From a virus (Duplodnaviria; Heunggongvirae; Uroviricota; Caudoviricetes), in the IMG/VR virus record IMGVR_UViG_2703718822_000001, positions 1 to 13,094 of that record: a DNA stretch of 13,094 nt; one strand, written 5' to 3'. Positions 1 to 13,094 of the stretch are shown piece by piece. The position numbers and the translations under genes are program-made. Position 1 is the first letter of the stretch, and each line of letters starts with the position of its first letter. The notes under the pieces are model-generated. The model searched no databases, was not told the DNA's origin, and saw nothing but the letters and a program-made list of their open reading frames with translations.

Positions 1-318
1 ATCTTCAAACGCATACGAAGCCATAATTCGCATCACTGCCGGTTTTATTTCTGCCGGGAGTTTTCTTAACGCCGCCACGCGATCACACCGACTGAGTGCA
101 TATTCTGTCAGCAATTCTGTTGCCCGCTCTCTGTCATTCATACTAATGCCCATTTTCCCAAGGAACGCAGAAAACCCCATCTCAGCCCGATTCTGTGTCA
201 TGCCCTGCGCGGCCATCACATCAGTGATACTCAGCGCATCTTTTGACGTTGAGGCCGATGCATCAGTCAGGCCGGGGGATTTTGGGGAGTAGTATTTCGG
301 TAAATCTTCCAGTTTCAT
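1..318 (-). CDS. late-gene antiterminator Q (phage 82 / QuuQ-like), N-terminal ~106 aa; rest of gene lies beyond the window start
   Basis: Minus-strand frame opens with ATG at 316-318, overlapping the rusA stop as ATGA, and stays open to position 1. Translation MKLEDLPKYYSPKSPGLTDASASTSKDALSITDVMAAQGM... resembles the N-terminus of phage 82-type Q proteins as I recall them. Position directly downstream of rusA is the canonical Q slot. Not in the ORF track because it is truncated by the window edge. Confidence 0.7.
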   Translation of the reverse strand, partial: MKLEDLPKYYSPKSPGLTDASASTSKDALSITDVMAAQGMTQNRAEMGFSAFLGKMGISMNDRERATELLTEYALSRCDRVAALRKLPAEIKPAVMRIMASYAFED

Positions 319-689
319 TTTTTGACCTGCTCTTCAAGCATTATGGGGTAAATCTTCACCCCCAGACGTCCACCAGATACTGGCTGACCACGTACAATAT
401 TGATTTCATCAAACTGCTCGTCATCAATAAGCACTCCCGCATGCGTCAGCGCATCCAGCGGTGCTTTCAGAATATTGTCCAGGTCGCGACGACGCTTATC
501 CGGTGGCTCTGCAATAATTTTTATTGCCAGCCGTCCGGACAGGCTTAATTTCAGTCGCAGCTGGCGAACAATAAGCGCCACTGCCCGGCGATAACGCTCC
601 CCTGCTTTTGATACAAAATATGTGCTGCCACGGCGTCTCCAGTAAGTGTTCACCGTCGGCGGGTAAGGTAAAACCAAATCTATGAGCAT
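315..689 (-). CDS. rusA: RusA-family Holliday junction resolvase
   Basis: 124-aa ORF. Motifs PDKRRRDLDN and SGGRL match the RusA catalytic region (E. coli RusA has PDRRRRDLDN and KGGRL). RBS GAGGTG about 6 nt upstream of the ATG at 687-689. Sits in the nin-region slot next to Q. Confidence 0.85.
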   Translation of the reverse strand: MLIDLVLPYPPTVNTYWRRRGSTYFVSKAGERYRRAVALIVRQLRLKLSLSGRLAIKIIAEPPDKRRRDLDNILKAPLDALTHAGVLIDDEQFDEINIVRGQPVSGGRLGVKIYPIMLEEQVKK

Positions 690-701
690 CAGTCACCTCT
701 T

Positions 702-1751
702 TTACCCGAGCACGCCAGTCGCAAAGGCGTGATCAAGAAAACGAAAAATTAACTCAATCTGAGAGCCGTACTTTTTCTCAAACTCCAGCGGGTCTGCATG
801 AAGTTCGTTGTGGTGCTCCCGGCACAACGGTAGCGTGAAAATATCGTGGGCCTTTGTCCCCATTCCCCCCTGACCATGACCAATCAGGTGATGCGGATCG
901 TCAGCAGGCTTACCACAACACGCACACGGCTGTGTCTTTACCCAGCGCGTGTATTTCTCATTTACCCAACGGCGACGTTTAGGTCGCCTCATGAAAGATT
1001 CCGGAGACTCCGGATCAACGGCAATGCTGAGCACCGCCTTTTCCTGTGGTGAGGGTTGTTGCTGGTGGACGTGAGGCAACGGCGCAAGATTTTTTGTGCG
1101 CTGATTCAGTATGCTGGTGGCGGTCTGCTCTCCCGGTACGATGTCGCTCTCACGGTATACTGAGCGGATTTTTTCCGCTGGTAATCCCAGCGAACGACGC
1201 GCTACTGCCTCAGGTAGTGCATCCACCACCTGATTGCAGACCGCCCACCAGGATAATTCGGCCAGCGATAACTCCCTCTCCTGCGTACCGCTTATTGCGT
1301 GACGGATGACGTCAATCATCCAGGCAACCAGATTCTGCTGAGCAAGTTGCGCCAGTGAATCAGATGTCTGGTCGCGCAGCTGGTTGTCGCAGTGCCAGCA
1401 CAACACCATCGCGCCGGAACCGTAACGATGTATGACAGTTTCGCTGTGATGATAATCGCCATGTGACCACTGGCAGGATTTCACGTGACGTAATAACCAG
1501 TCAGACAGTGCACCAGCACCACCTACTGCACGAATTACCCGCTCATCGCTGAAAAATGGCAGTAATGATTTATCCTCAGCCAGCGGCTGGCGAACGGCAG
1601 GAACGACTCCGGACGACAGACCGCGCATGCTTTTCGGTTCCGGCTCCACCAGCACCCTGCAGCAATGAAAAACCGGCAGTGATTCGCGACCAGGTTTAAG
1701 GACCACCAGGCCAAGTTCCGGTACCAGAACAGGTCTAAGTAATATCCGCAC
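702..1751 (-). CDS. ydfU: YdfU-like prophage protein (DUF968 type) with C-terminal HNH-like Cys/His motif
   Basis: 349-aa ORF, GTG start with GGAGG RBS 5 nt upstream. C-terminal CACCGKPADDPHHLIGHG...LCREHHNELH looks like an HNH/zinc-finger nuclease motif; N-terminal half has a CWHCDNQ / HGDYHH cluster. Same length as K-12 Qin YdfU as I recall it, and adjacent to Q as in Qin. Confidence 0.55.
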   Translation of the reverse strand: MRILLRPVLVPELGLVVLKPGRESLPVFHCCRVLVEPEPKSMRGLSSGVVPAVRQPLAEDKSLLPFFSDERVIRAVGGAGALSDWLLRHVKSCQWSHGDYHHSETVIHRYGSGAMVLCWHCDNQLRDQTSDSLAQLAQQNLVAWMIDVIRHAISGTQERELSLAELSWWAVCNQVVDALPEAVARRSLGLPAEKIRSVYRESDIVPGEQTATSILNQRTKNLAPLPHVHQQQPSPQEKAVLSIAVDPESPESFMRRPKRRRWVNEKYTRWVKTQPCACCGKPADDPHHLIGHGQGGMGTKAHDIFTLPLCREHHNELHADPLEFEKKYGSQIELIFRFLDHAFATGVLG

Positions 1752-1752
1752 G

Positions 1753-2085
1753 TTACCTCCAGATGCGCTGCTGGAATGTGCGGGACGGACGCGGTGGGCG
1801 TTCGGAGTAAGGGAGTCTGACTGAGATTATCCAGTGACGGTAGTCGAGGCTAAGAGCTTTCTTAACCTCGTATCCGCGCCTGCGGTAACACTGAATTATC
1901 CATTCAGCCTGCTCTTCAGTGCATGGAGGATGCTGGAACCAGTCTGATTTGAATGCATGAGAACGCCGCCCGTGCCTGCAGGCAGGAGCGGCAGAGTTAT
2001 CCGAATTGTAAAATCTGGTATCGTGCGCCATCGGTTGTCTCTGCTGGCGCAGCAGGTGCCAGTTGTTCAGGCTGGCGTGTGGCAA
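1753..2085 (-). CDS. hypothetical protein (start uncertain; TTG at 2085 or ATG at 2029-2031)
   Basis: ORF-track ORF whose stop abuts the ydfU-like start, suggesting translational coupling. No strong RBS at either candidate start and no recognisable motifs. Confidence 0.35.
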   Translation of the reverse strand: MPHASLNNWHLLRQQRQPMAHDTRFYNSDNSAAPACRHGRRSHAFKSDWFQHPPCTEEQAEWIIQCYRRRGYEVKKALSLDYRHWIISVRLPYSERPPRPSRTFQQRIWR

Positions 2086-2129
2086 TATTGTCTCTGATTT
2101 CTGTTGTCGTCAACCGCTTCTGTGCTTAC

Positions 2130-2162
2130 TCACTTGATGAGTGAAACGATTAACTTTACTAT
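2130..2162 (+). promoter_or_regulatory. candidate sigma70 promoter with overlapping palindromic operator for the 2213-2548 gene
   Basis: -35-like TTGATG (2134-2139), 17-bp spacer, -10-like TACTAT (2157-2162). Palindrome TCACT-TGATG-AGTGA at 2130-2144 overlaps the -35. Confidence 0.35.
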
Positions 2163-2212
2163 TTACTTAACAGGTTTTTCCTGTACCACGATTCCCCATA
2201 CAGGAGGCCAAC

Positions 2213-2548
2213 ATGAGTGATGACAAAAAAATTGAGTTCAGCACCAGTGATGTGTTGAATGCTTTACTCCATCGCCAGCAGAACATGCAACACCTGGCGA
2301 CACAGGAAAGCGTTGATAACCTGCGTCGTGAGATTGATGGTCGATTCAATTCTTCACAGGACAACGTTGATAACTTCCGACGTGAGGTCGATAGTCGCTT
2401 TAATTCTTTGCAAAACCAGCTAATATCGGTTGATAAGCGCCTGGACAAGCTGGAAACCAAGTTTGATCGACTCCAGTGGTTTATTGTTGCTGCCGCTCTG
2501 GCTCTCATCTTCAAGGATTACATCTTCAGGATTATTGGTGCTCAGTAA
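2213..2548 (+). CDS. small tail-anchored coiled-coil protein with internal tandem repeat (moron; FlxA-position or XhlA-like architecture, family not established)
   Basis: 111-aa ORF with strong AGGAGG RBS 6 nt before the ATG. Two tandem 18-aa repeats (ESVDNLRREIDGRFNSSQ and DNVDNFRREVDSRFNSLQ) encoded by a diverged 54-bp tandem DNA repeat. C-terminal hydrophobic anchor WFIVAAALALIF. Convergent with the surrounding minus-strand operon; own promoter and terminator. Confidence 0.7.
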   Translation: MSDDKKIEFSTSDVLNALLHRQQNMQHLATQESVDNLRREIDGRFNSSQDNVDNFRREVDSRFNSLQNQLISVDKRLDKLETKFDRLQWFIVAAALALIFKDYIFRIIGAQ

Positions 2549-2550
2549 AT

Positions 2551-2578
2551 CCGGCCCCGTTTTCGGGGCTATCTTTTC
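2551..2578 (+). terminator. Rho-independent terminator
   Basis: Stem GCCCCG (2554-2559), loop TTTT, stem CGGGGC (2564-2569), followed by T-rich tail TATCTTTTC, immediately after the TAA stop at 2546-2548. Confidence 0.7.
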
Positions 2579-2733
2579 GCATCTGCATCAGACTTTCCAC
2601 CAACTTTTTATTGCCAGCTTCTGCAATCTACTCTACCTTATGTGCGTCAGAACGGCGCAATGCGCTCGCCTGAGATACGTTTACTTGCCATGGTAACAAC
2701 AGGTAACAGCAATTGTTGTTTCTGTTTTGTTTG

Positions 2734-2817
2734 TTATCCCCAGCGGCAAATCGAATACACCACCAGCGCCACCGCCATCGCAATTCCTACCGTTGTGAAT
2801 GCTTCAGGCCAGGTCAT
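2734..2817 (-). CDS. candidate 27-aa single-TM micropeptide, translationally coupled to the DUF551 gene
   Basis: ATG at 2815-2817 overlaps the DUF551 TGA stop (ATGA). Translation MTWPEAFTTVGIAMAVALVVYSICRWG, then stop. Below the ORF-track size cutoff; hand-translated. Confidence 0.3.
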   Translation of the reverse strand: MTWPEAFTTVGIAMAVALVVYSICRWG

Positions 2818-3371
2818 TGATTCACCTCCTGCGGCGGTTCTGGTAGCGGCATCCAGTGGGTTGCTTGCCTAAGATCATTACCCGGACTAACTGCTATACC
2901 TCCGCGCCGGAACGTGCCTCCGAGATAGCGTGCGGAATATATTAATGGCCCTGCCTCGCTATCGATATTCATCGAAATAAGCACGTTCTGGCTCTTTTCA
3001 GGCATTCGCTCAGTACAGCTTATCCAGCCATCCGGAGTTATCGGAGATCTGGTTGACGTTTCCGAGATTTCCCGAAAATTGTTGGTTGACGAATTCTTAT
3101 TTTCCCGAAAGTTTCCGGCCTGAAGCATGGCGACGCGGCAGGCGTTCCAGCCATCAGCATATGTTTTAGTTACACCGTCGAGATGGCAGGTAAGCAAATC
3201 CATTTCATCAGGCACTACCATTGCTATCGGCTCTGCTTCCAGTGATGCCAGCGCGATACGAAACACATTAGCCAGCAGGCTGTCTGAAGACTTGTTATCG
3301 TGCGCCGAGTCGCTCAGGAAGCCTGTGATGTATGATTTAATCTCCGCGCGTTCTCTGGTAATAGTGCTCAT
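2814..3371 (-). CDS. DUF551-domain phage protein
   Basis: 185-aa ORF with AGGAA RBS 8 nt upstream of the ATG. C-terminal W/P-rich signature DGWISCTERMPE...THWMPLPEPP, typical of the lambdoid DUF551 domain as I recall it. Confidence 0.65.
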   Translation of the reverse strand: MSTITRERAEIKSYITGFLSDSAHDNKSSDSLLANVFRIALASLEAEPIAMVVPDEMDLLTCHLDGVTKTYADGWNACRVAMLQAGNFRENKNSSTNNFREISETSTRSPITPDGWISCTERMPEKSQNVLISMNIDSEAGPLIYSARYLGGTFRRGGIAVSPGNDLRQATHWMPLPEPPQEVNQ

Positions 3372-3717
3372 ATCAGTTTTCCTTATACGGATTAATTTTA
3401 TTGTGCAGTGCGCTGAATGATTCCCATGTCACATCGGTATATAGCTCAATAACTGGTTCAAATGTCCTTCCAATTATCCAGACCAGTAATAGCGGGGATA
3501 TCGGTATCATCAACACTATAAACAGAATGAAAAACAGAAACTCTGTTGTTCTGCTCTTTCGTGGGTAATTTTTTCTAAATAATGTTTCATTTCTTACCGC
3601 CCTTTCGGGCGGCCTCCTGATGTTCTGAGGGTGCAGGAATCCCTCCGGTTAAGGATTTAATAAAAATCGTTTCTGATTTAAATCTTCAGTATTTAGTTGT
3701 TAGTTGGTTTATCGCCT

Positions 3718-4029
3718 TTATGCTTCAGCCTTATTTCGCAACCAGACACAAACCGGGCCATCTTCCGTATCATGAATGGAACCAATAAACCAGCCATCGC
3801 CCTCTGGTCGTTCCGGTTCCCATGCTGAAATATCAGGGCCATCTGCGTCCAGGTTAAAATCATCTTCATCCATAGTGCAGATAGTCCACTGAAGATTATT
3901 TGCCTCCATCCACGCGTTAAATTCTTCCGTTGAAATATTCTCCCGACCATCACAGAATTTTTCATATTCAGGATGTGTCCAGTAGCCATATTCGTCACGA
4001 ACTACCGGCATTTCTTTAATTTCACTCAC
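3718..4029 (-). CDS. hypothetical acidic phage protein
   Basis: 103-aa ORF, GTG start at 4029 preceded by AGGAGG at 8-nt spacing (alternative in-frame ATG at 4009-4011). Acidic, Trp-rich. Start overlaps the upstream gene stop. Confidence 0.5.
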   Translation of the reverse strand: MSEIKEMPVVRDEYGYWTHPEYEKFCDGRENISTEEFNAWMEANNLQWTICTMDEDDFNLDADGPDISAWEPERPEGDGWFIGSIHDTEDGPVCVWLRNKAEA

Positions 4030-4249
4030 TGTTAACCTCCTGCAACGCTACACGATACGCCTTCTTTATCCACGCCTTACTGCCATATAATTTCGTCTTC
4101 ATAATAAACACACCTGCACGACTCGCCGATATCCCCGGACAGGTTAACAGCACAGCATCCACCACACGGTTATGCTTCCGGAACTCCATTACAGTACTGC
4201 TGATAAGCACCTGCCCCACCGGGCCGTAATCCTGATACAGGATTTTCAC
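4022..4249 (-). CDS. hypothetical protein
   Basis: 75-aa ORF, GTG start at 4249 preceded by AGGAGG at 8-9 nt; GTGA overlap with the stop of the upstream gene. Confidence 0.45.
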   Translation of the reverse strand: MKILYQDYGPVGQVLISSTVMEFRKHNRVVDAVLLTCPGISASRAGVFIMKTKLYGSKAWIKKAYRVALQEVNSE

Positions 4250-4500
4250 GCAGACACCCTCCTGTCGAAATAAACGTAGTTATTCACTGTGCGCAACGGC
4301 ATTCCGAATTTTCTGGCGATTTCTCTCCTCGACACGCCACGCTGATGCTGCTGTCGCGCCAGCTCAATATCACTCTGCGGATATTTTGCTGACTGGTGAT
4401 AATCACCCCGTAACATCATACTAATACCCAGTTCCCGCGCTTTCGTTCTGACCGCAGCCTCACTACGACCAATAAGCATCCCGATGCATTCCACCGTCAT
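4246..4500 (-). CDS. small DNA-binding protein with two HTH-like segments (NinH-like style)
   Basis: Chosen start is the ATG at 4498-4500 (MTVECIGMLIGRSEAAVRTKARELGI...). The ORF-track start at 4650 is a GTG that would overlap the upstream gene by 90 nt. Second HTH-like segment QRGVSRREIARKFGMPLRTVNNYV. Confidence 0.45.
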   Translation of the reverse strand: MTVECIGMLIGRSEAAVRTKARELGISMMLRGDYHQSAKYPQSDIELARQQHQRGVSRREIARKFGMPLRTVNNYVYFDRRVSA

Positions 4501-4559
4501 TGTTCCCGCACACTGCCGGAGTATCAGGATTTCCGCCCGGCACCACGTCTTCCAGCCAC

Positions 4560-5264
4560 TCACTGTTGCTGCTCTCTGGTGGTGGTAATATCCCGGAGAA
4601 TATCCCTGTGTTTGTTCAGTTCCCGCAGCGCGGCACAGACACGCTCCCACTTCTGGACATGACTTTTCGCCCGGCGCAGCTCGCGGTTAGCCACATTCAG
4701 CGATGGTAGAATCAGGTCATCTGCTTTCGTTTCGGTAAACGATGGCAGCGACTGCACAATGTCCGCCACAGTATCTGTTTTAATTTCTTCCTGTGTCGCC
4801 GCTTCCTGTACCGGTAACGCAACTCCTGCTGGCTGAGGAAAGGCTTTACCATCCGTTTCCGCTACGGATGCAGCTTCCGGCTCTGCCGGTAAATCAGCGC
4901 CCGGTATGCAGTAACGAAATTTACCACCCTGATTCACGCGAATCAGACGACCTTTGCTGATTGCCATCGCCAGTGATGAATTCGCCCGGCGGGAGGTAAT
5001 CCCGAACATTAACGCCAGTTCGTCAGCCGACTGAGGACCATGCTGTTCAATCGCGTTAATCAGCATCTCTGCAGTGGTTTTTGGGGCCTCTTCAGTTGCC
5101 TCACTCGTCAGCCACCACATCGACCCCTTGTTATCAGCTTCGCCACGACGCTTCAGCTTCCAGAGTTCGGTAACAGCATCGTCACGGCTGATTTCAAGAC
5201 GGGCTGCAATCTCGTGCGACGAGGCTTTTTTCAGTGCTTTCAGTGCGTCAAAAACGGTTTCCAT
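4560..5264 (-). CDS. hypothetical protein with tandem winged-helix-like N-terminal domains
   Basis: Start moved to ATG 5262-5264 ([13 protein letters not shown]...), which has a strong GGAGGA RBS 8 nt upstream and sits in the gap after the DnaC-like stop. Two consecutive wHTH-like segments, acidic/Pro-rich linker, C-terminal coiled coil. Confidence 0.6.
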
Positions 5265-5286
5265 TAAATTTTCCTCCGGATAAAAA

Positions 5287-6039
5287 TTACTTCGCCACAC
5301 TCAGATGGCTGACATTGGGACGCCAGCTTTCCCAGTTAAAACTCACCCAGCGACCACCGTTCATGGTCATCCGGTCCATAATCCTCTCACCAAGAAGCGT
5401 GCTCATTGCGGCATGATTCAGGTTTGTCAGCATCCCGACACTGCGCAGTGATGCCGTCCGGCGATCAACAATCTGGTGCAGTACCACCTGCTCGTTTTTC
5501 GTCTCACGCTGGATGCCAATTTCGTCAAGAACCAGGAGGTCCACTTCGCACAGTTCACGCAAAAATTTTTCCCCTGACAGCCCGTCATCGTAGCTGGCAT
5601 GTAACGCGCTCATCACATCCGCCACAGTGACCACTATCACGGATTTACCGGCCTTCAGCAGACGATTACCCACAGCCGCCGCCAGATGATTTTTTCCGGT
5701 TCCCGGATTCCCGCTGAACACGAAGTTTGTATAACCGGTTATCATTTCCTCAGCGATGGATTTGGCCTGGCTCAGCGCATGTTTCTGCCCGTCGTTCCGC
5801 ACCTGGTAATTCGCGAACGAACATTTGCGGTGCAGCGGCTGGATGCCCGAACGGTTCAGGATTTTTTCCACCCGCAACTGACGATTCCGGCGGTTAATCT
5901 CCTCGCAGTATTTCCGGCCTTCGGCAAGTTGCCACTCGCGCCACTCCTCCGGCGTACAGTACGGCACGGTTGCGCGTTCAGAAGCCAGTCTGCGGATGCG
6001 TTCCAGAACACCAACTGCAACTGTCGCGATATCTTTCAT
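5287..6039 (-). CDS. DnaC/IstB-type AAA+ replicative helicase loader (lambda P analogue; YdaV-like)
   Basis: 250 aa. Walker [16 protein letters not shown] and Walker B-like DLLVLDEIG. Immediately downstream of the O-like initiator. Confidence 0.85.
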
Positions 6040-6045
6040 GGTCAG

Positions 6046-7014
6046 TTACCCCCTGAAACCCGGTGGAATTTCAGTGTCCGGTTCAGAAATATGATTCACG
6101 CAACTCTGCGCAGGCCCACGCCCAAGACGAATGACCAGTTCATCCCATTTTTCGCGCAGTTTTGCCGGACTCATGATATTTTTTACCCAGAACGGATCCC
6201 GCTGCACCCGACTGAACATTTCACAAATCTGCCGGTGACTGCGGCCATCCAGCATGCGCATCATCCGGACATCGTTAGCCCATGTCGTCCAGTTTGGCTC
6301 TCTGGGGCGAGAAACCTCACCATCATCACTGGCTGCGTGTTCATACAGCGCAACAACACGCCCCCAGATCCACTGCGCACAGGTAATATCATCACGGGTT
6401 CCCCACTGTCGCTTCGGCACATTCCACGTATGCGCATCAGGGTGTTTATCCAGAAAGCGTTCAACCGGAGATGATTTTTTTTCGTCCGGAAGTGAAACGT
6501 CCGGACAAGAAGATCTTTTATCTGACGGATCAAGTTTTAATACTGACGGATCGGGGTCAATCATCGCCCCCCTAATCGGCTGTTTTTTATCAATGGTTGA
6601 CCCCTCAGAATTTGACGGGTCAACCATTGAGGGGTCAATATTTGACGGGTCAACTGTTAACGGGTCATTTTTTGCCGGGCTAATTTTTCTTTTCGGTTTA
6701 TATGCCTCACGCGCCGCCGCTGCCGCTGCTTCGAGTTTTTCCACATTAAGCCGATAGATATTGCTTACGTTACGCCCACCGATCTTACGCTCTTCCTTCG
6801 TCAGCCAGCCCTCTTTCGCCAGTTCTGCAATCGCAGATTTCACGGTGGATTCACTTCTGGCACCGATCTGACGCCGGATCGTTTCCATAGCAGGCCATGA
6901 CACCCCCTCGTCATTGCTGTAATCTGCAAGACGGGCCATTACTGCCACCCTTGATAAGATCATGCCAGTGAAGGCGCATCCTTCCCAGACAAGACCATGA
7001 AGCTTGCTGCTCAT
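6046..7014 (-). CDS. replication initiator (lambda O analogue / YdaU-like) with origin embedded in its linker region
   Basis: ATG at 7012-7014 with GGGGG RBS 5 nt upstream (the ORF-track start at 7029 is a GTG). N-terminal winged-helix-like domain, central D/P/S-rich repetitive linker (DPLTVDPSNIDPSMVDPSNSEGSTID...) that is encoded by the iteron DNA, then a C-terminal domain. Confidence 0.8.
   Translation of the reverse strand: MSSKLHGLVWEGCAFTGMILSRVAVMARLADYSNDEGVSWPAMETIRRQIGARSESTVKSAIAELAKEGWLTKEERKIGGRNVSNIYRLNVEKLEAAAAAAREAYKPKRKISPAKNDPLTVDPSNIDPSMVDPSNSEGSTIDKKQPIRGAMIDPDPSVLKLDPSDKRSSCPDVSLPDEKKSSPVERFLDKHPDAHTWNVPKRQWGTRDDITCAQWIWGRVVALYEHAASDDGEVSRPREPNWTTWANDVRMMRMLDGRSHRQICEMFSRVQRDPFWVKNIMSPAKLREKWDELVIRLGRGPAQSCVNHISEPDTEIPPGFRG
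6550..6706. repeat. candidate replication origin: iterons plus AT-rich region inside the O-like gene
   Basis: At least four direct repeats of (T)TGACGGGTCAA-like units at about 15-bp spacing (6611-6667: tttgacgggtcaacc / attgaggggtcaata / tttgacgggtcaact / gttaacgggtca), with further copies at 6553-6560 (ggggtcaa) and inverted at 6597-6604 (ttgacccc). Flanked by AT-rich ttttttgccgggctaatttttcttttcggtttatat (6667-6706). Confidence 0.6.
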
Positions 7015-7036
7015 AAAACCCCCGAACACCGTGCTT

Positions 7037-7462
7037 TTAGTGCATCACCACAGCATTCCCTGCCGGGCCGCCGCGATTTATCTGGTCATACAAAACGACC
7101 GCTGACGCAACAAAATCGTCGACATCCTTCACCAGCCGATCCCGCCGTTCGACAATCTCCCGGTAGTACTCAGAACTGTGACTGCGCATACGGGCCACCA
7201 GCAAAGGCGGCATCGCCTTTTCGATCGCCGGTAACAGAGCCTGAATTTTTTCAACAGCATCAGGGGTGTCTTTATCCAGCCAACGGAAAATTTTCTGGGT
7301 ATTACGAGCCAGGGCCTCAGGATGAGTGTCGTCGTACAGTTCCGGGAACGTCATCCCCAGTTCGAAATAAGTCCGGGCTATTTCAGCTGCGGGAACTTTC
7401 TCACCGTCAGGATATGCCCAGGCATTCATCGCCATGCGGATGTGCTCATGCTTGATTTTCAT
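7037..7462 (-). CDS. ydaT: YdaT-family protein (proposed CII-like regulator in Rac-type immunity regions)
   Basis: 141 aa, starts MKIKHEHI and ends ...VVMH, matching my recollection of Rac YdaT (about 140 aa). ATG overlaps the Cro-like stop (ATGA at 7459-7462). Third gene position as in racR-ydaS-ydaT. Confidence 0.55.
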   Translation of the reverse strand: MKIKHEHIRMAMNAWAYPDGEKVPAAEIARTYFELGMTFPELYDDTHPEALARNTQKIFRWLDKDTPDAVEKIQALLPAIEKAMPPLLVARMRSHSSEYYREIVERRDRLVKDVDDFVASAVVLYDQINRGGPAGNAVVMH

Positions 7463-7713
7463 GAATCAACTCCCAACAGCTTTTTCGTAGTAGTTTTATT
7501 TCTGCCAATAGTTAAAATTGCATCGGCAGAAAATAATCCGTTTGATGCATGAGCGATTTTTTCAGCATAATTTGTTTCGCCGGTATATTCAGTGCGAGGC
7601 AATTTTCCGTTATCCATCCATTTGTAGATTGCTCTTTGGCTGACACCACAAACGTCGGCCACAACAGAAACGCGAACAGTTTTGATTACATCTTCAAGTG
7701 TTTTCTGGTTCAT
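7459..7713 (-). CDS. Cro-like HTH repressor (DicC/YdaS family)
   Basis: Start set at ATG 7711-7713 (MNQKTLEDVIK...), with GAGGGTG RBS 6 nt upstream. The ORF-track start at 7785 would leave only 8 bp before the divergent repressor gene. HTH segment VADVCGVSQRAIYKWMDNGKLP. Confidence 0.7.
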   Translation of the reverse strand: MNQKTLEDVIKTVRVSVVADVCGVSQRAIYKWMDNGKLPRTEYTGETNYAEKIAHASNGLFSADAILTIGRNKTTTKKLLGVDS

Positions 7714-7792
7714 ATCACCCTCACAATGTGAACTTTGAGTACACTCTATAACAGAACTGACAGTACATTCAAGAGCGAATATCATTGAACTT
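7714..7792. promoter_or_regulatory. divergent immunity promoter/operator region (PR/PRM analogue)
   Basis: 79-bp AT-rich gap between the divergent Cro-like and repressor starts. Repeated GTACA-core motifs: GAGTACACT (7737-7745) and AGTACATT (7760-7767). Confidence 0.6.
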
Positions 7793-8212
7793 ATGGTTCA
7801 TGAAGATAAAGCGCGTAAAGAGTTCGCCAGTAGGCTTGCGCTAGCCTGTGAAAACGCTGGTTATGAACAACATGGAAGGCAGGCAGAAATTGCCCGTCGA
7901 ATGAAATTAACACCAAAAGCGGTTAGCAAATGGTTTAATGGCGAAACAATTCCTCGCCGAGAGAAATTAAGGGAATTAGCAACACTCATTGGAACAACAC
8001 CAACCTATCTTTTGGGAGAGGATACAGAAGAAAGTGGACAGGTACGTTTCTATCAGGAGTTAAATCCAAGACAAAAAATCATCATTGATCTTCTGGACGA
8101 GCTCCCTGACAGTGAGACAGATGAACTTTTAAAAACTCTTGAGGAGAAAAAACAAAAGTACAATGCAATTTACGAAGAGTTAGCACGAAAGAAAAAACAA
8201 AAAGCCTCTTAA
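7793..8212 (+). CDS. dicA: DicA-like (RacR-like) XRE-family HTH immunity repressor without a peptidase S24 domain
   Basis: 139 aa. HTH region GRQAEIARRMKLTPKAVSKWFNGETIPRREKLRELATLIGTTPTYLLGED. C-terminal LNPRQKIIIDLLDELPDSETDELL... resembles the DicA C-terminus as I recall it. Divergent from the Cro-like gene and followed by ydfA/B/C-dicF-dicB as in Qin. Symbol is by synteny plus resemblance. Confidence 0.7.
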   Translation: MVHEDKARKEFASRLALACENAGYEQHGRQAEIARRMKLTPKAVSKWFNGETIPRREKLRELATLIGTTPTYLLGEDTEESGQVRFYQELNPRQKIIIDLLDELPDSETDELLKTLEEKKQKYNAIYEELARKKKQKAS

Positions 8213-8275
8213 ACCAGCATAAATCCGGTAGCGTCCCCCTCCGGGTTTGTGTTTCACTTTTTCCCATCTCATTTT

Positions 8276-8335
8276 TTTACACATAAAATGTACTTAAAGT
8301 ACTTTACAACACTGAACATAAAGTACATTATATAC
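8276..8335 (+). promoter_or_regulatory. candidate repressor-controlled promoter of the downstream dicB-type operon
   Basis: AT-rich region with -35-like TTTACA (8303-8308) and -10-like CATTAT (8326-8331), overlapped by GTAC-core operator-like repeats ATGTACTTAAAGTACTTT (8287-8304) and AAGTACATT (8321-8329). The 8-mer AGTACATT is identical to that at 7760-7767. Confidence 0.4.
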
Positions 8336-8510
8336 ATACCAACCCACCCCGCCCCACAGAACGCAGGGCAATACTTCGAGTTACCAGGCAGTGGTCAGGG
8401 GTTAAGTAGCCAGCCCGAGGCGTAAGAACATGACGGCAGGGTTCAACTTTAATAACTATGCAGCAGGTTTTTGTTCCGCTACCCCGGCGTTAAGGGGAAA
8501 TGAGGTCAGC

Positions 8511-8666
8511 ATGGATACTATCGATCTTGGCAACAACGAATCTCTGGTGTACGGCGTGTTTCCAAACCAAGACGGTACGTTCACCGCGATGACGTATACC
8601 AGAAGCAAAACGTTTAAAACCGAAGCTGGCGCGCGTCGCTGGCTGGAAAGAAATTCAGGTGAGTGA
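8511..8666 (+). CDS. ydfA: YdfA-like small protein (51 aa)
   Basis: Start set at ATG 8511 (MDTIDLGNNESLVYGVFPNQ...), which has a GAGGT RBS at 5-nt spacing; the ORF-track start at 8430 has a weaker RBS. Resulting 51 aa equals the K-12 YdfA length, and it is the first gene after the DicA-like repressor. Confidence 0.55.
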   Translation: MDTIDLGNNESLVYGVFPNQDGTFTAMTYTRSKTFKTEAGARRWLERNSGE

Positions 8667-8667
8667 T

Positions 8668-8796
8668 ATGGATTTCGACGCAATCATGGAAAAGGCTTAC
8701 GAAGAATACTTCGAAGGCCTTGCCGAAGGCGAAGAAGCTCTCAGCTTCAGTGAGTTTAAACAGGCGCTTTCCAGTTCGGCAAAATCTAACGACTGA
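8668..8796 (+). CDS. ydfB: YdfB-like small acidic protein (42 aa)
   Basis: Hand-translated: MDFDAIMEKAYEEYFEGLAEGEEALSFSEFKQALSSSAKSND. ATG 1 nt after the ydfA-like TGA. 42 aa equals the K-12 YdfB length. Below the ORF-track cutoff. Confidence 0.55.
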   Translation: MDFDAIMEKAYEEYFEGLAEGEEALSFSEFKQALSSSAKSND

Positions 8797-8825
8797 TAAG
8801 CGAAGCGGCACCGCGAGGAATCAGT

Positions 8826-9041
8826 ATGCAGAAACGAGAACCCGTCATCATCGCACCAGACTATACCGAGGATGAAATTTACGAATGGATGTGCGGAAAG
8901 ATACGCGCCATTAATGACCTGAAGCAGGCCGCTGACTACAAAGAGCGCCTCTCTAAAGAACTGGTGTCAGCGGAGCAGGATATTACCACTCTGGCAAAAA
9001 GCGCGGCATTAAACGTTTCGCGAGTGATTGAAAACTACTGA
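8826..9041 (+). CDS. ydfC: YdfC-like small protein (71 aa)
   Basis: 71-aa ORF with GAGGAA RBS. Third small gene of the operon; K-12 YdfC is 72 aa as I recall. Confidence 0.55.
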   Translation: MQKREPVIIAPDYTEDEIYEWMCGKIRAINDLKQAADYKERLSKELVSAEQDITTLAKSAALNVSRVIENY

Positions 9042-9130
9042 CCAATGAGCTCAAGTAGTTCTCCGCAGATGAAGTGCGTGCGCCGGACACGGATAAACCT
9101 CCGGCATGCTCTTTAACAATCTGGATATTC

Positions 9131-9577
9131 CTAACCACAAAGAAATCGCATCAATTTGGATTTTGTGGGCAACTTCTCGTGTTGTTCGATGGAGACGCCT
9201 ATTTTGATCTGTGTTTTTAAGATCGCAATATCTTTAAGTGATGACCAAATATGATCATCTGTTTTTCCCAGAGTTTTTAACTGAATTTTCAATTCCGAAT
9301 CAGAATATTTTTCTGCATCATCAAAAAGCTGCAAATATTCTGCGGATTTTCTCATGGCATTACCTGACTTTTGTCCGAATCCATAAATCGTTTGGTCGGT
9401 TGCGATCACAACAATAAAAACGCCAGAAATTTCCGGAATGAATCCGCCAATGACAGATGAACCGAGGATAATACTCACTACTGAGAGAAGTTTATCGAGA
9501 CGACCAGTCGCTACAGAAAACAGTTGCTCAAGAAAATAGCCATATAAAATTCTGTCAAGAATATCATCCCGGTCCAT
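9131..9577 (-). CDS. reverse-oriented two-TM membrane protein; candidate superinfection-exclusion / abortive-infection effector (SieB-like position, SLATT-like topology)
   Basis: 148-aa ORF, ATG at 9575-9577 with AGGTGA RBS. Two adjacent hydrophobic helices (LLSVVSIILGSSVIGGFI and ISGVFIVVIATDQTIYGF) followed by about 78 aa of soluble, charged C-terminus. Locally AT-rich compared with neighbours. Opposite orientation to the dicA-dicB operon and lying where K-12 Qin, as I recall, has only a short ydfC-dicF spacer. Confidence 0.7.
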   Translation of the reverse strand: MDRDDILDRILYGYFLEQLFSVATGRLDKLLSVVSIILGSSVIGGFIPEISGVFIVVIATDQTIYGFGQKSGNAMRKSAEYLQLFDDAEKYSDSELKIQLKTLGKTDDHIWSSLKDIAILKTQIKIGVSIEQHEKLPTKSKLMRFLCG

Positions 9578-9636
9578 ACACCATCACCTGCTTGTGCTCT
9601 TTGCTCTGTCATATGATTTCCTTGGATCGTTGGGGA

Positions 9637-9672
9637 TATCCAGATTATACAGATTTCCTGTCGTTGGGGAAT
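9637..9672 (-). promoter_or_regulatory. candidate promoter for the 9131-9577 gene
   Basis: Perfect -10 TATAAT on the minus strand (complement of 9644-9649), preceded by TG; weak -35 TTCCCC (complement of 9667-9672) at 17-bp spacing. About 65-nt leader to the ATG. Confidence 0.35.
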
Positions 9673-9926
9673 GACGGAAACCACCTCGCCTGACGTGGTT
9701 AAAAGCAGGCACACAACACGAAAGCGCACGGCGAAGTTCGTCTCACTGCACGGTGTCGTTAAATTTAATTCGACCGTGCGCTTCCGGTTGTGGCGCCCCG
9801 CGAAATGGCGCGGCGGTAAGTATGGCGGGGGTGGGAGGGACGCCTTTCCCCGTTGAGGACACCGGGTTGTCAGGTTGACCATACGCTTAAGTGACAACCC
9901 CGCTACAACGCCCTCTGTTATCAATA

Positions 9927-9984
9927 TTCTGGTGACATTTGGCGGTATCAGTTTTACTCCGTGACTGCTCTGCCGCCCTTTTTT
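9927..9984 (+). ncRNA. dicF: DicF small RNA (ftsZ-targeting) with intrinsic terminator-like 3' end
   Basis: ttctggtgacatttggcggtatcagttttactccgtgactgctctgccgccc followed by a run of six T (9979-9984). This matches the E. coli DicF sequence as I recall it (UUUCUGGUGACGUUUGGCGGUAUCAGUUUUACUCCGUGACUGCUCUGCCGCCC) apart from about two substitutions near the 5' end. Lies 170 bp upstream of dicB as in Qin. Confidence 0.85.
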
Positions 9985-9987
9985 AAA

Positions 9988-10139
9988 AGTGAATTTTGTG
10001 ATGCGGTGAATGCGGCTCAGCGCACGCGGAACAGTTAAAACCAAAAACAGTGTTATGGGTGGATTCTCTGTATCCGGCGTTAATTGTTAACTGGTTAACG
10101 TCACCTGGAGGCACCAGGCACCGCATCACAAAATTCATT
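9988..10139. repeat. long inverted repeat (18-bp perfect core, about 21 bp extended) bracketing 110 bp between dicF and dicB
   Basis: 9991-10008 GAATTTTGTGATGCGGTG is the exact reverse complement of 10119-10136 CACCGCATCACAAAATTC; pairing extends to 9988/10139 with one G-T. The loop contains GTTAAC-TG-GTTAAC (10087-10100) and CCTGG-aggca-CCAGG (10104-10118). Confidence 0.5.
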
Positions 10140-10154
10140 GTTGAGGACGCGATA

Positions 10155-10343
10155 ATGGAAAAGTTATCATGTAATGCCAGCACGTCTGAACTTCGTTTCG
10201 AAATTGGCGTTATCACTGGAGACAAAACATTTATTGAAGACGCCATTAAGCAGAGAAAACTCGAGCAGGACCTGTTAAATGAAGTATGCATTCCTTCAAT
10301 GCTGGCTCGTCTGGACCTGCTGCAAAAAGGATATAAACAATGA
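10155..10343 (+). CDS. dicB: DicB cell-division inhibitor (MinC-dependent FtsZ antagonist)
   Basis: 62 aa: MEKLSCNASTSELRFEIGVITGDKTFIEDAIKQRKLEQDLLNEVCIPSMLARLDLLQKGYKQ. Closely parallels E. coli DicB as I recall it (same length; FEIGV...TEDAI..RK...LLN..CI.SMLARL). GAGGA RBS. Stop overlaps the ydfD-like ATG (ATGA). Confidence 0.85.
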   Translation: MEKLSCNASTSELRFEIGVITGDKTFIEDAIKQRKLEQDLLNEVCIPSMLARLDLLQKGYKQ

Positions 10344-10531
10344 ATACAACATTTGCACTCGTTCTGACAGTTTATCTTGTTTCCGGCGAATCTCTTGAGC
10401 TGGTGACTGGCTTATACGGTTCAATGAAAGAATGCATGGCTGCAGCAGCAGAACAAAAAATTCCCGGTAACTGTTATCCGGTAGATAAAACTACTCACAC
10501 TAATAATAACGAAATACCGGCAGGACTTTAA
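10340..10531 (+). CDS. ydfD: YdfD-like small protein with N-terminal hydrophobic segment (reported lysis-type protein in Qin)
   Basis: 63 aa, equal to the K-12 YdfD length, directly after dicB. N-terminal TFALVLTVYLVSG hydrophobic helix. Confidence 0.55.
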   Translation: MNTTFALVLTVYLVSGESLELVTGLYGSMKECMAAAAEQKIPGNCYPVDKTTHTNNNEIPAGL

Positions 10532-10624
10532 AACAGCACCGTAATTAATATCCGGTTTCATTTTTATATGCCAGCAATGGCAGGGATTTGTTCACCCTTA
10601 AATCTGTAATGAGGTTAAAACAAA

Positions 10625-13094
10625 ATGAGTAAAGTCTTTATTTGCGCCGCCATTCCGGACGAACAGGCAATAAAAGAAGAGGGCGCAGTTGCTGTAGCCA
10701 CTGCCATTGAAGCCGGTGATGAACGCCGCGCCCGTGCCAAATTTACCTGGCAATTCCTGGAGCAATATCCTGCTGCTCAGGACTGCGCTTATAAATTTCT
10801 TGTCTGCGAAGATAAACCCGGCATGCCCCGCCCTGCTATCGACTCCTGGGATACCGAATATATGCAGGAAAACCGCTGGGATGAGGAATCCGCTTCCTTT
10901 ATTCCGGTCGAACCAGAATCCGATCCTATTAACGTCAATTTTGACAAGCTGTCCCTTGAAGTACAGAACGCGGCCCTAGTTAAGTTCGGTACATGTGAAA
11001 ACATCACCGTTGATATGGCGATTGACGCGCAGGAATTACTGCAAGAAGACGTGGCTACCTTTGACGGGCATATCGTTGAAGCACTGATGAAAACGCCTGA
11101 AATTAACGCTATGTATCCGGAACGCAAACTGTTCGCTATCGGATGGGTTAAACACAAATGTAAGCCGGGTACCAAATGGCCCGAAATTCAGGCTGAATTA
11201 CGTAACTGGAAAAAACGGCAGGACGCAGAGCGCAAAGAGACTGGAAAATACACGTCTGTTGTTGATCTTGCCCGCGCCAAAGCCAACCGACAGCACACTG
11301 AAAACCCAGCAGAAAAAATCCCTCCTGTAACTGCCGCCATTCATCGCGAATACAAGCAGACATGGAAAACCCTGGACAGGGAGCTGGCCTACTATCTCTG
11401 GCCTGGTGATGCGGATGCCGGAAACATTGACGGCAGCATCCTTCGCTGGGCTAAAAATGAAATTATCGCCAGAGATCGCGAAGACTGGAAGCGCATCTCC
11501 GCATCAATGCGCAAACAACCTGATGCGCTTCGCTACAGCCGCCAGACTATTTTTGGCCTTGTCCGTGAACGCCCGATCGACATTCACAAAGATCCCGTGG
11601 CACTGAACAAATACATCACTGAATACCTGACTACAAAGGGCGTGTTTGAAGATGACGAAGGAACAAATCAGGGCACAGCTAATACTCTCTCGTCGCCAGT
11701 ACCAGAAACTGACGCAGTGGAAACGGCAATTCAGGACAACGAAAAAACCGAATGCAAAGTGGAAGTCGAATCATCTGTAGAGCGTGAGGGGCCGTTCTAC
11801 TTCCTCTTCACCGACAAGGATGGCGAAAAATACGGTCGCGCAAACAAACTTTCTGGTCTGGATAAGGCACTGGCTGCCGGGGCTACTGAAATCACGAAAG
11901 AAGAATATTTCGCCCGCAAAAACAGTACATACTCAGGTTCACAACAAAATACTGGTGCATCTGACACGACCGCACAACCAGAGCCGGTAAAAGTTACCGC
12001 TGACGAAGTAAACAAAATTATGCAGGCAGCCAATATCAGCCAGCCTGACGCCGATAAGTTGCTTGCTGCCTCTCGCGGAGAATTTGTTGCAGGGATTAGC
12101 GACCCGAATGATCCGAAATGGGTTAAGGGGATCCAGACCCGCGATTCTGTAAACCAGAACCAGCATGAATCGGAACGGAACTACCAAAAAGCGGAACAAA
12201 ACAGCCCAAATGCGTTACAAAACGAGCCAGAAACGAAACAGCCTGAACCAGTGGCGCAACAGGAAGTGGAAAAAGTCTGCACCGCCTGCGGTCAGACCGA
12301 CGGCGGCAACTGCCCTGATTGTGGCGCGGTGATGGGCGACGCAACATACCAGGAAACATTCGATGAAGAGTATCAGGTTGAAGTTCAGGAAGATGATCCG
12401 GAGAAAATGGAAGGCGCTGAACATCCACACAAGGAGAACACTGGCGGCAATCAGCATCACGATAGCGATAATGAAACTGGCGAGACGGCAGATCACTCAA
12501 TTAAGGTGAACAGTCATCAAGAAATCACATCCACCAGCAGGACGTGTGACCATCTAATGATCGACCTTGAAACCATGGGAAAAAATCCTGATGCCCCGAT
12601 CATCTCAATAGGTGCAATATTTTTCGATCCGCAAACCGGAGATATGGGACCGGAATTTAGTAAGACTATCGATCTGGAAACTGCTGGCGGAGTCATTGAT
12701 CGGGACACCATTAAATGGTGGCTTAAGCAATCACGCGAAGCGCAATCTGCCATTATGACCGATGAAATCCCGTTAGATGATGCACTGTTACAATTGCGGG
12801 AATTTATCGACGAAAACTCCGGTGAATTTTTTGTTCAGGTCTGGGGAAATGGAGCCAACTTCGACAACACGATTTTGCGCCGTTCATACGAACGGCAGGG
12901 GATCCCCTGCCCGTGGCGTTACTACAACGATCGCGATGTACGCACAATCGTTGAGCTGGGGAAAGCCATAGACTTCGATGCCAGAACGGCTATTCCATTC
13001 GAAGGTGAGCGCCATAATGCACTTGATGACGCCCGTTACCAGGCAAAATACGTTTCAGTTATCTGGCAAAAACTGATCCCGAGTCAGGCTGATT
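10625..13094 (+). CDS. large early-left-operon protein (at least 823 aa, 3' end beyond window) with C4 zinc ribbon and DEDDh 3'-5' exonuclease domain; YdfE/RecE-position protein
   Basis: I hand-checked codon by codon: ATG at 10625 (GAGGT RBS 9 nt upstream) and no in-frame stop through 13093. Absent from the ORF track only because it runs off the window. Zinc ribbon CTACGQTDGGNCPDCG at about 12283-12330. Exonuclease motifs: Exo I MIDLETMG (about 12557-12580), Exo II GNGANFDNTIL, Exo III HNALDDARYQAKY (His codon 13013-13015). Confidence 0.8.
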   Translation, partial: MSKVFICAAIPDEQAIKEEGAVAVATAIEAGDERRARAKFTWQFLEQYPAAQDCAYKFLVCEDKPGMPRPAIDSWDTEYMQENRWDEESASFIPVEPESDPINVNFDKLSLEVQNAALVKFGTCENITVDMAIDAQELLQEDVATFDGHIVEALMKTPEINAMYPERKLFAIGWVKHKCKPGTKWPEIQAELRNWKKRQDAERKETGKYTSVVDLARAKANRQHTENPAEKIPPVTAAIHREYKQTWKTLDRELAYYLWPGDADAGNIDGSILRWAKNEIIARDREDWKRISASMRKQPDALRYSRQTIFGLVRERPIDIHKDPVALNKYITEYLTTKGVFEDDEGTNQGTANTLSSPVPETDAVETAIQDNEKTECKVEVESSVEREGPFYFLFTDKDGEKYGRANKLSGLDKALAAGATEITKEEYFARKNSTYSGSQQNTGASDTTAQPEPVKVTADEVNKIMQAANISQPDADKLLAASRGEFVAGISDPNDPKWVKGIQTRDSVNQNQHESERNYQKAEQNSPNALQNEPETKQPEPVAQQEVEKVCTACGQTDGGNCPDCGAVMGDATYQETFDEEYQVEVQEDDPEKMEGAEHPHKENTGGNQHHDSDNETGETADHSIKVNSHQEITSTSRTCDHLMIDLETMGKNPDAPIISIGAIFFDPQTGDMGPEFSKTIDLETAGGVIDRDTIKWWLKQSREAQSAIMTDEIPLDDALLQLREFIDENSGEFFVQVWGNGANFDNTILRRSYERQGIPCPWRYYNDRDVRTIVELGKAIDFDARTAIPFEGERHNALDDARYQAKYVSVIWQKLIPSQAD

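Follow-up and report, generated by a model that had tools for sequence, protein, structure and literature searches.

A probably degenerate copy of a reversed microprotein and SLATT-like gene module in the dicBF operon of an Escherichia coli prophage

What occupies the 885 bp between the last ydf gene and the small RNA (sRNA) DicF in the virus record IMGVR_UViG_2703718822_000001, and what might the gene that lies there on the opposite strand do? We analysed positions 1 to 13,094 of this IMG/VR record (the window, 13,094 nucleotides); it comes from a lambdoid E. coli prophage of the Qin/Rac type and spans its immunity and early-left region. The interval consists of three parts: a backbone hairpin element, an accessory module of ~595 bp and the conserved dicF leader. 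The intact form of the module carries two genes, one for a proline-rich microprotein and, after it, one for a small membrane protein that appears to be related to the SLATT effectors. The window has lost the first gene by deletion, and its second gene is probably attenuated or inactive. We favour, at roughly even confidence, reading the locus as a degenerate copy of a prophage superinfection-exclusion or abortive-infection module, judging from its gene content, placement and pattern of conservation.

The interval between ydfC and DicF

The distance from the stop codon of the ydfC-like gene (9041) to DicF (9927) is exactly the 885 bp given in a first-pass annotation of the window, which had explained it as a moron dropped into a K-12 spacing of about 100 bp. 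The K-12 spacing is longer than that, with a gap of 340 bp in MG1655 (ydfC end 1649041, dicF start 1649382). The alignment with K-12 that this annotation had called for gave two breakpoints, between which extra DNA at ~9106-9700 (~595 bp) replaces ~32 bp. On the ydfC side, positions 9053-9092 align to the K-12 locus (L004 3074-3118) just 3' of ydfC, and the continuation of the homology through the 3' arm of a hairpin to ~9105 (K-12 ~3130) was read by eye. On the other side, the dicF leader is homologous in K-12 and in ~4300 of 5426 complete E. coli genomes. The features of the locus are the following.

7793-8212, plus strand: dicA-like repressor gene
Between the dicA-like and ydfC-like genes, plus strand: ydfA (DUF1391), then ydfB
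8826-9041, plus strand: ydfC-like gene of 71 amino acids, the final ydf gene ahead of the interval (open reading frame, ORF; phrog_1744, E-value 2e-27)
9053-9105, plus strand: backbone element with the 9082-9105 hairpin (counterpart present in K-12)
9106-9700, minus strand: accessory module proper, not in K-12 Qin (breakpoints of the K-12 homology; GC content 33-45%)
9131-9577, minus strand: gene for a SLATT-like membrane protein of 148 amino acids with two transmembrane (TM) segments (ORF; phrog_6315; fold)
9511-9612, minus strand: remnant of the proline-rich microprotein gene (alignment with intact modules; ORF table)
9629-9636 and 9663-9670, minus strand: two TCCCCAAC direct repeats, candidate operator
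9644-9649, minus strand: -10 hexamer TATAAT of the module promoter (sequence; invariant upstream block)
9701-9926, plus strand: structured dicF leader, the DicF precursor region (K-12 homology; folding z = -3.3)
9927-9978, plus strand: DicF sRNA (Rfam RF00039, full length; covariance-model score 77 bits, gathering score 48, E-value 6e-16)
10155-10343, plus strand: dicB, cell-division inhibitor gene (Pfam DicB, E-value 4e-38; RefSeq)
3' of dicB: DUF1482/ydfD gene, 3'-5' exonuclease gene, xis and int

Positions 8400-10600 are 100% identical to strain OkiPb01678, and the entire window is ~94% identical to that genome. The backbone genes, hairpin element, leader, DicF, dicB and DUF1482 gene are collinear with K-12 Qin, with partial DNA identity of 83-95% in the ydfA-ydfC stretch. 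Unlike the window, K-12 has the ~32 bp in place of the 595-bp module and lacks an 8-nt insertion in the leader. This insertion of ~8 nt (GGGAGGGACGCC, at ~9835-9846) is private to the clade of the window and falls in a predicted stem region; all the other loci compared have TTATTCC where the window clade has GGGAGGGACGCC.

Two segments that had been counted as cassette DNA belong to the backbone. The 9082-9105 hairpin lies inside the 9053-9105 element, which cassette-free K-12 and ML35 share and which Klebsiella loci have in inverted form. As a terminator for the reversed gene this hairpin lacks credibility, because the minus strand has no T-tract and folds no better than shuffled sequences (z = 0.17; plus strand, z = -2.3), and K-12 has the element as well. 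The GC-rich structured segment is the dicF leader, which folds better than shuffles on the plus strand. We therefore rejected a structured RNA borne by the cassette, this leader being universal and Rfam giving DicF alone. Also set aside were two minus-strand ORFs, 9584-9712 (42 amino acids) and 9511-10044 (177 amino acids), which run antisense through the leader and DicF; of the longer one the final 33 codons alone are meaningful, as the frame-shifted remnant of the microprotein gene.

The idea of a moron-type insertion stands as far as the accessory nature of the gene is concerned, since the full-length gene occurs in 72 of 5426 complete E. coli genomes (any trace of it in 89). The mode of entry looks different. 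An unsystematic look at the breakpoints revealed no insertion ends, flanking direct repeats, target duplications or insertion sequence (IS)-like ends, so that a transposon-style insertion is unsupported, and a recombinational slot appears to be the better description. In K-12 and ML35 the slot upstream of the dicF leader is empty. In OkiPb01706 (L008 2026-2481, minus strand) it holds a reversed gene, preceded by the same promoter block, for a 150-amino-acid protein with a coiled coil and a CxxC zinc ribbon (phrog_1244), and in BL21 (L009 2280-2480, minus strand) a reversed gene for a 66-amino-acid protein (phrog_34441) occupies the equivalent of 9106-9700. The left neighbours of the SLATT-like gene differ too: ydfC in the window, ydfA directly in an O157:H16 strain (L002), and a gene for 124 amino acids in RM11911 (L003). 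From these gene contents, the slot behaves as a recombinational cargo site for alternative reversed genes and looks like a hotspot.

The same operon has another variable insertion. In several sister prophages a relBE toxin-antitoxin pair is located between the dicA-like repressor gene and ydfA (L002 868-1347 and L003 854-1327).

The first-pass annotation had likened the site to that of exclusion genes such as sieB, and sieB of Rac indeed has the same position and orientation. The order in Rac (L007 4406-5312) is racR, ydaG, ydaF (DUF1391), sieB reversed, the kilS sRNA, kilR and, further on, recE; that in the window is dicA, ydfA (DUF1391), ydfB, ydfC, the SLATT-like gene reversed, DicF, dicB and the exonuclease gene. 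Judged by gene order, DicF/dicB and kilS/kilR look like parallel pairs of an sRNA and an inhibitor behind one accessory slot. Relatives of the window protein at 23-44% identity are likewise encoded in reverse inside early-left operons. A Klebsiella relative adjoins KilR and exonuclease VIII, an Enterobacter relative adjoins a CI-type repressor, the relative in Providencia phage PSTNGR2lys is found between cI and bet/exo, and a further one is encoded on a KilR-carrying contig.

Phage EKP1 (L006, OM284015.1) carries the microprotein and SLATT-like gene pair reversed between the Q antiterminator and holin genes (3847-4441), a placement unlike that in the enterobacterial prophages. Its recorded host is Elizabethkingia, and this host assignment may deserve a check.

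A microprotein gene and a SLATT-like membrane protein gene

The core of the first-pass annotation, an accessory AT-rich gene in reverse orientation and with its own promoter in the dicA-ydfABC-dicF-dicB operon, has held up. The 148-amino-acid ORF starts with ATG and is found in RefSeq as a hypothetical protein (WP_033801030.1), its body has 33-42% GC compared with 47-58% in the flanks, and the gene is absent from reference K-12 Qin. It is conserved as a coding sequence and is a real gene: 39 of 42 copies (genomes and IMG/VR contigs) have an unbroken ORF, and the ratio of nonsynonymous to synonymous substitution rates (dN/dS) is 0.11-0.21 in comparisons with alleles at dS 0.09-0.42. A truncated remnant of the module was seen in O145:H28 E. 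coli (e.g. NZ_CP028379.1 1107858-1107949), where the 5' 92 nt of the SLATT-like gene and the 3' part of the microprotein ORF (micro-ORF) are left.

This gene has a partner. Each of the 12 divergent loci examined, from nine genera, has a micro-ORF 3-18 nt 5' of the SLATT-like gene; they include Providencia phage PSTNGR2lys, 'Elizabethkingia' phage EKP1, Salmonella, the KilR-carrying contig, Sodalis, Symbiopectobacterium (three loci), Phlomobacter, Enterobacter and Klebsiella. It is present in most E. coli copies as well, with two N-terminal variants; examples of intact modules are those of O157:H16 strain 98-3133 (NZ_CP051001.1, ~2636100-2636950) and strain 1303 (NZ_CP009166.1, ~1323800-1324500). 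The product is a hydrophilic proline-rich peptide of 26-52 amino acids, with the motif H[IM]PEK[NA][IV]RP..P.PPP in most copies. Between O157:H16 E. coli (L002) and the KilR-carrying contig (L052) the proportions of synonymous and nonsynonymous differences (pS and pN) are 0.35 and 0.135, and in the motif region between E. coli and Salmonella they are 0.97 and 0.19. The microprotein thus evolves as a protein under purifying selection. Searches of PHROGs and protein databases with it returned essentially nothing, and it is a called protein in two clusters of the collection; in the RefSeq loci checked the micro-ORF is unannotated.

Upstream of the pair lies the promoter. The perfect TATAAT reported in the first-pass annotation (minus strand, 9649->9644) is where it was said to be, 72 nt 5' of the ATG of the reversed gene, and the hexamer is invariant in the 15 distinct upstream sequences compared. 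A consensus promoter scan did not call the module promoter, whose -35 hexamer matches at three of six positions. Two copies of TCCCCAAC, 34 bp apart, flank the -10 hexamer and are the two occurrences of this sequence in the 13-kb window. The same arrangement around the -10 is found in an Enterobacter locus (L058) that encodes a SLATT-like protein of 30% identity, and the repeats are a candidate operator for some regulator. Transcription of the module from this promoter would follow the minus strand and run counter to the dicBF (PL-like) operon. In one IMG/VR contig (L031) the -10 region is duplicated in tandem, AATCTGTATAATCTGTATAATCTGG.

The promoter block raises the question of whether the module is mainly regulatory, its antisense promoter and convergent transcription modulating read-through into dicF/dicB and its protein being secondary cargo. 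The block at 9629-9680 is kept independent of the cargo, as in OkiPb01706 with its unrelated gene and in the Enterobacter locus, and it abuts the structured dicF leader. Expression of dicBF is toxic and tightly repressed, and antisense control is established for sieB and sas of P22. We nevertheless regard a mainly regulatory role as improbable, since K-12 and many other dicF loci make DicF without the promoter, the module transcript heads away from dicF and does not overlap it, and purifying selection acts on the protein products of both genes, which a role in transcription alone would not need.

The protein itself has one match among the models searched, phrog_6315, a family of no known function. 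No Pfam, NCBIfam or PADLOC model matched it, nor did any PDB sequence, and the curated SLATT profiles (PF18181/18183/18184/18186/18160 and NF03363x) gave nothing even at E-values up to 1 or 10. An exhaustive profile search returned 138 representatives at 50% identity, which are mostly stand-alone proteins of ~150-175 amino acids, the rest being shorter fragments. Members picked up by a word-indexed profile search come from Enterobacter, Serratia, Yersinia, Klebsiella, Edwardsiella, Providencia, Citrobacter and other genera; every one is annotated as 'hypothetical' and none has a Pfam domain.

With an alignment of 90 sequences, AlphaFold2 gave a model with a predicted local distance difference test score (pLDDT) of 92.8 and a predicted template modelling score (pTM) of 0.84. 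The model rests on these 90 diverse sequences; the one made with nine close homologues was unusable (pLDDT 48.7). Helices span residues 3-44, 48-65, 67-86, 93-104, 113-126 and beyond, such that a long N-terminal helix leads into TM1, the chain turns back tightly into TM2, and the C-terminal domain is helical. Hydrophobic stretches at ~30-47 and ~50-66 in the hydropathy profile support the two TM segments. The two-TM core flanked by N- and C-terminal helices, by which SLATT proteins are recognised, is thus seen in the model. Foldseek against BFVD returned mostly SLATT proteins among the named top matches (probability 0.97-1.00, TM-score 0.47-0.66, E-value 0.04-0.2).

Members of the family point in the same direction. 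NCBIfam SLATT_4 (NF033632) matches 42 of the 90 aligned members (best E-value 8.6e-7) and SLATT_1 matches 16; Pfam SLATT_4 matches two (E-value 0.04), the PADLOC CBASS '2TM effector' nine and the reverse transcriptase (RT)-associated SLATT model three. UniRef labels two members as SLATT proteins. We conclude from this family and fold evidence, with no direct match of the window protein, that the family forms a minimal and divergent branch within the SLATT superfamily, with SLATT_4 as its nearest kin. We also considered homology with SieB and rejected it: hhalign of the family profile against Rac SieB gave a probability of 0.3%, and there was no match to Pfam SieB.

Deletion and decay of the copy in the window

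Alignment with intact modules showed that a 118-bp deletion removed the microprotein gene in the window. It took place between two AAGCAGGTG[GA]TG repeats, and the junction is in a AAGCAGGTGATGG repeat at ~9580-9593. What is left of the micro-ORF is an ATG at 9612 and the first 10 codons (MTEQRAQAGD), after which it continues out of frame across the start of the SLATT-like gene. The TATAAT-to-ATG distance of 72 nt compares with 190 or 204 nt in intact modules. The deletion is shared by OkiPb01678, OkiPb01695, 06-00048, N96, 08-00022 and a few IMG/VR contigs, and accounts for ~5 of the 72 complete-genome copies of full length.

Taking as ancestral reference the allele of this clade that is identical to the family consensus (L013 = L067), we found three private replacements in the window: V61D (in TM2), E104G and Q133H. 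Other members of the clade have G148C; I98T; L11F and A74T; D108N and Q69*; and one frameshift. The totals are eight nonsynonymous changes, one nonsense change, one frameshift and no synonymous change, whereas about two thirds of the differences among intact modules are synonymous. By our own calculation, nine substitutions with none synonymous have P ~1e-4 under the regime of the intact modules. Position 61 is V, I, L, M or F in 16 of 16 aligned relatives and position 104 is E or Q in 16 of 16. Because D61 and G104 depart from what these relatives have at the two positions, we infer that the window allele is probably attenuated or inactive, and the copy in the window appears to be a degenerate derivative. 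The microprotein gene went first, with the deletion, and the three replacements in the effector gene came later.

This history may also recall an addiction module, in which a membrane-protein toxin and a microprotein antidote stabilise the prophage or arrest growth under stress. The small gene and the membrane-protein gene are tightly coupled (3-18 nt) behind their own promoter, and after loss of the small gene only protein-altering changes are seen, including a charged TM2 residue, a stop and a frameshift, as would be expected of selection against an unguarded toxin. Toxin-antitoxin pairs are also at hand, with RelBE in the operon of other dicF loci and Hok/Gef in the nin region of the closest genome. 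Some copies of the deletion clade (L013, L067) nonetheless keep the consensus protein without the partner, and the nonsynonymous excess is not significantly above the neutral expectation. The sieB-type slot in many prophages and the SLATT kinship indicate phage conflict instead. We consider a toxin-antitoxin-like role unlikely, and it is compatible with defence, many abortive-infection systems being of this kind.

Elsewhere in the window, an ORF of 111 amino acids at 2213-2548 (plus strand) has heptad-like repeats of DN.RRE.D.RFNS and a hydrophobic tail at its C terminus, with weak coiled-coil matches as its only Pfam matches. It is reversed relative to its nin-region neighbours, and the closest complete genome has the Hok/Gef gene at this place.

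A possible exclusion or abortive-infection module

We favour superinfection exclusion or abortive infection for the intact module because of its conserved placement, its own promoter, its AT-rich composition and its kinship with SLATT proteins, for which a pore-forming effector role is predicted in CBASS and DRT10 systems. The intact module would be expressed in the lysogen, in the slot that sieB holds in Rac. The 148-amino-acid protein would be the effector, located in the inner membrane and perturbing or permeabilising it, with the microprotein as its regulator or partner. Since sieB of P22 is silenced by the antisense sas RNA, we propose that transcripts reading antisense through the module from the derepressed dicBF operon could shut it off while the prophage itself grows lytically.

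Among known systems, SieB of Rac, lambda and P22 (PF14163) is the closest in arrangement, being encoded in reverse in an early-left (PL-type) operon and, in Rac, ahead of an sRNA and a division inhibitor. Both are small proteins of the membrane, predicted in the case of the module; their genes are accessory to the operon and would be exposed to antisense transcription from it. They have no sequence relationship, and sieB has the in-frame Esc product where the module has a microprotein gene. The SLATT_4 (PF18186/NF033632, type I CBASS) and SLATT_5 (DRT10/UG17) effectors resemble the protein in having two TM segments flanked by helices. The window protein, by contrast, stays below every curated model threshold. 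The only conserved neighbour in the module is the proline-rich micro-ORF, and the module is found in the early operons of temperate phages, in contrast with the SLATT effectors of defence islands.

RexA and RexB of lambda form a two-gene exclusion system expressed by the prophage, in which RexA triggers RexB, a membrane protein and presumed ion channel. The module is similar in having two genes close to the immunity region, one of them for a membrane protein. RexB has four TM segments, RexA is a soluble sensor of 279 amino acids, and the rex genes stand beside cI and not antisense in the PL operon; a kinship with the module has neither sequence nor fold evidence.

Several points weigh against the exclusion or abortive-infection reading. 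The likeness to SLATT is seen at the family and fold level alone, and the Foldseek E-values are weak. No similar solved structure was found for the window protein, and there is no solved SLATT structure to compare it with. Genes for CD-NTase/SMODS, SLOG, RT and TIR proteins are absent from the window and from 10 related contexts; type I CBASS requires a CD-NTase adjoining the effector, and no nucleotidyltransferase occurs in the window or the related loci. The lack of homology with SieB counts here as well. In the deletion clade, the absence of synonymous changes among nine departs from neutrality marginally (P ~0.04-0.08), so that relaxed selection and selected inactivation are inseparable, and the consensus protein is still the product of three alleles (L013, L067 and near-identical copies); loss of the partner thus need not lead to inactivation. 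Expression of the module in the lysogen is assumed.

The absence of a sensor or enzyme partner typical of SLATT systems also counts in favour of a third alternative, an exclusion protein of the SieA, Imm or Sim kind that blocks DNA injection, or a different role in the membrane that does not kill the cell, for instance as a lysis-timing accessory. A small, predicted inner-membrane protein that is prophage-encoded and has its own promoter would suit such a role, and there is a precedent in SieA of P22, which according to PMC10883804 resides in the inner membrane and is both necessary and sufficient for SieA-mediated exclusion. In fold and in profile matches, however, the protein of the module resembles SLATT effectors and not SieA or Imm, and in E. 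coli the gene is not part of the lysis cassette. We hold this alternative to be rather improbable, noting that the present evidence does not distinguish an entry block from abortive infection.

Within the exclusion or abortive-infection reading, a bolder and tentative proposal is that the microprotein and the minimal SLATT-like protein together form a previously undescribed two-gene anti-phage system, a non-homologous replacement of sieB in temperate-phage early-left operons across Enterobacterales. In this proposal the microprotein would be a trigger or a brake, its polyproline tract might couple translation of the effector to the state of the translation machinery, and the decay in the window would reflect a lost brake. 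The gene and its family were already known as 'hypothetical' (phrog_6315), as were SLATT effectors and, as concepts, sieB-type morons. Our literature searches found no description that combines the two-gene architecture with a conserved proline-rich microprotein, the absence of a nucleotide-signalling partner and a systematic use of the sieB slot throughout Enterobacterales.

Should the intact module prove to be an exclusion system, it would add a compact two-gene defence to the prophage repertoire, and SLATT-type membrane effectors would be able to work without a nucleotide-signalling or RT partner. One fixed slot in the lambdoid early-left region would then be a hotspot for interchangeable defence cargo, with sieB in Rac, the module here and other reversed genes elsewhere. 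The microprotein gene, which its conservation suggests to be functional, would be a conserved small ORF overlooked by annotation pipelines. For the biology of dicF and dicB, the 'long untranslated region' 5' of dicF is variable and is probably transcribed convergently in some strains.

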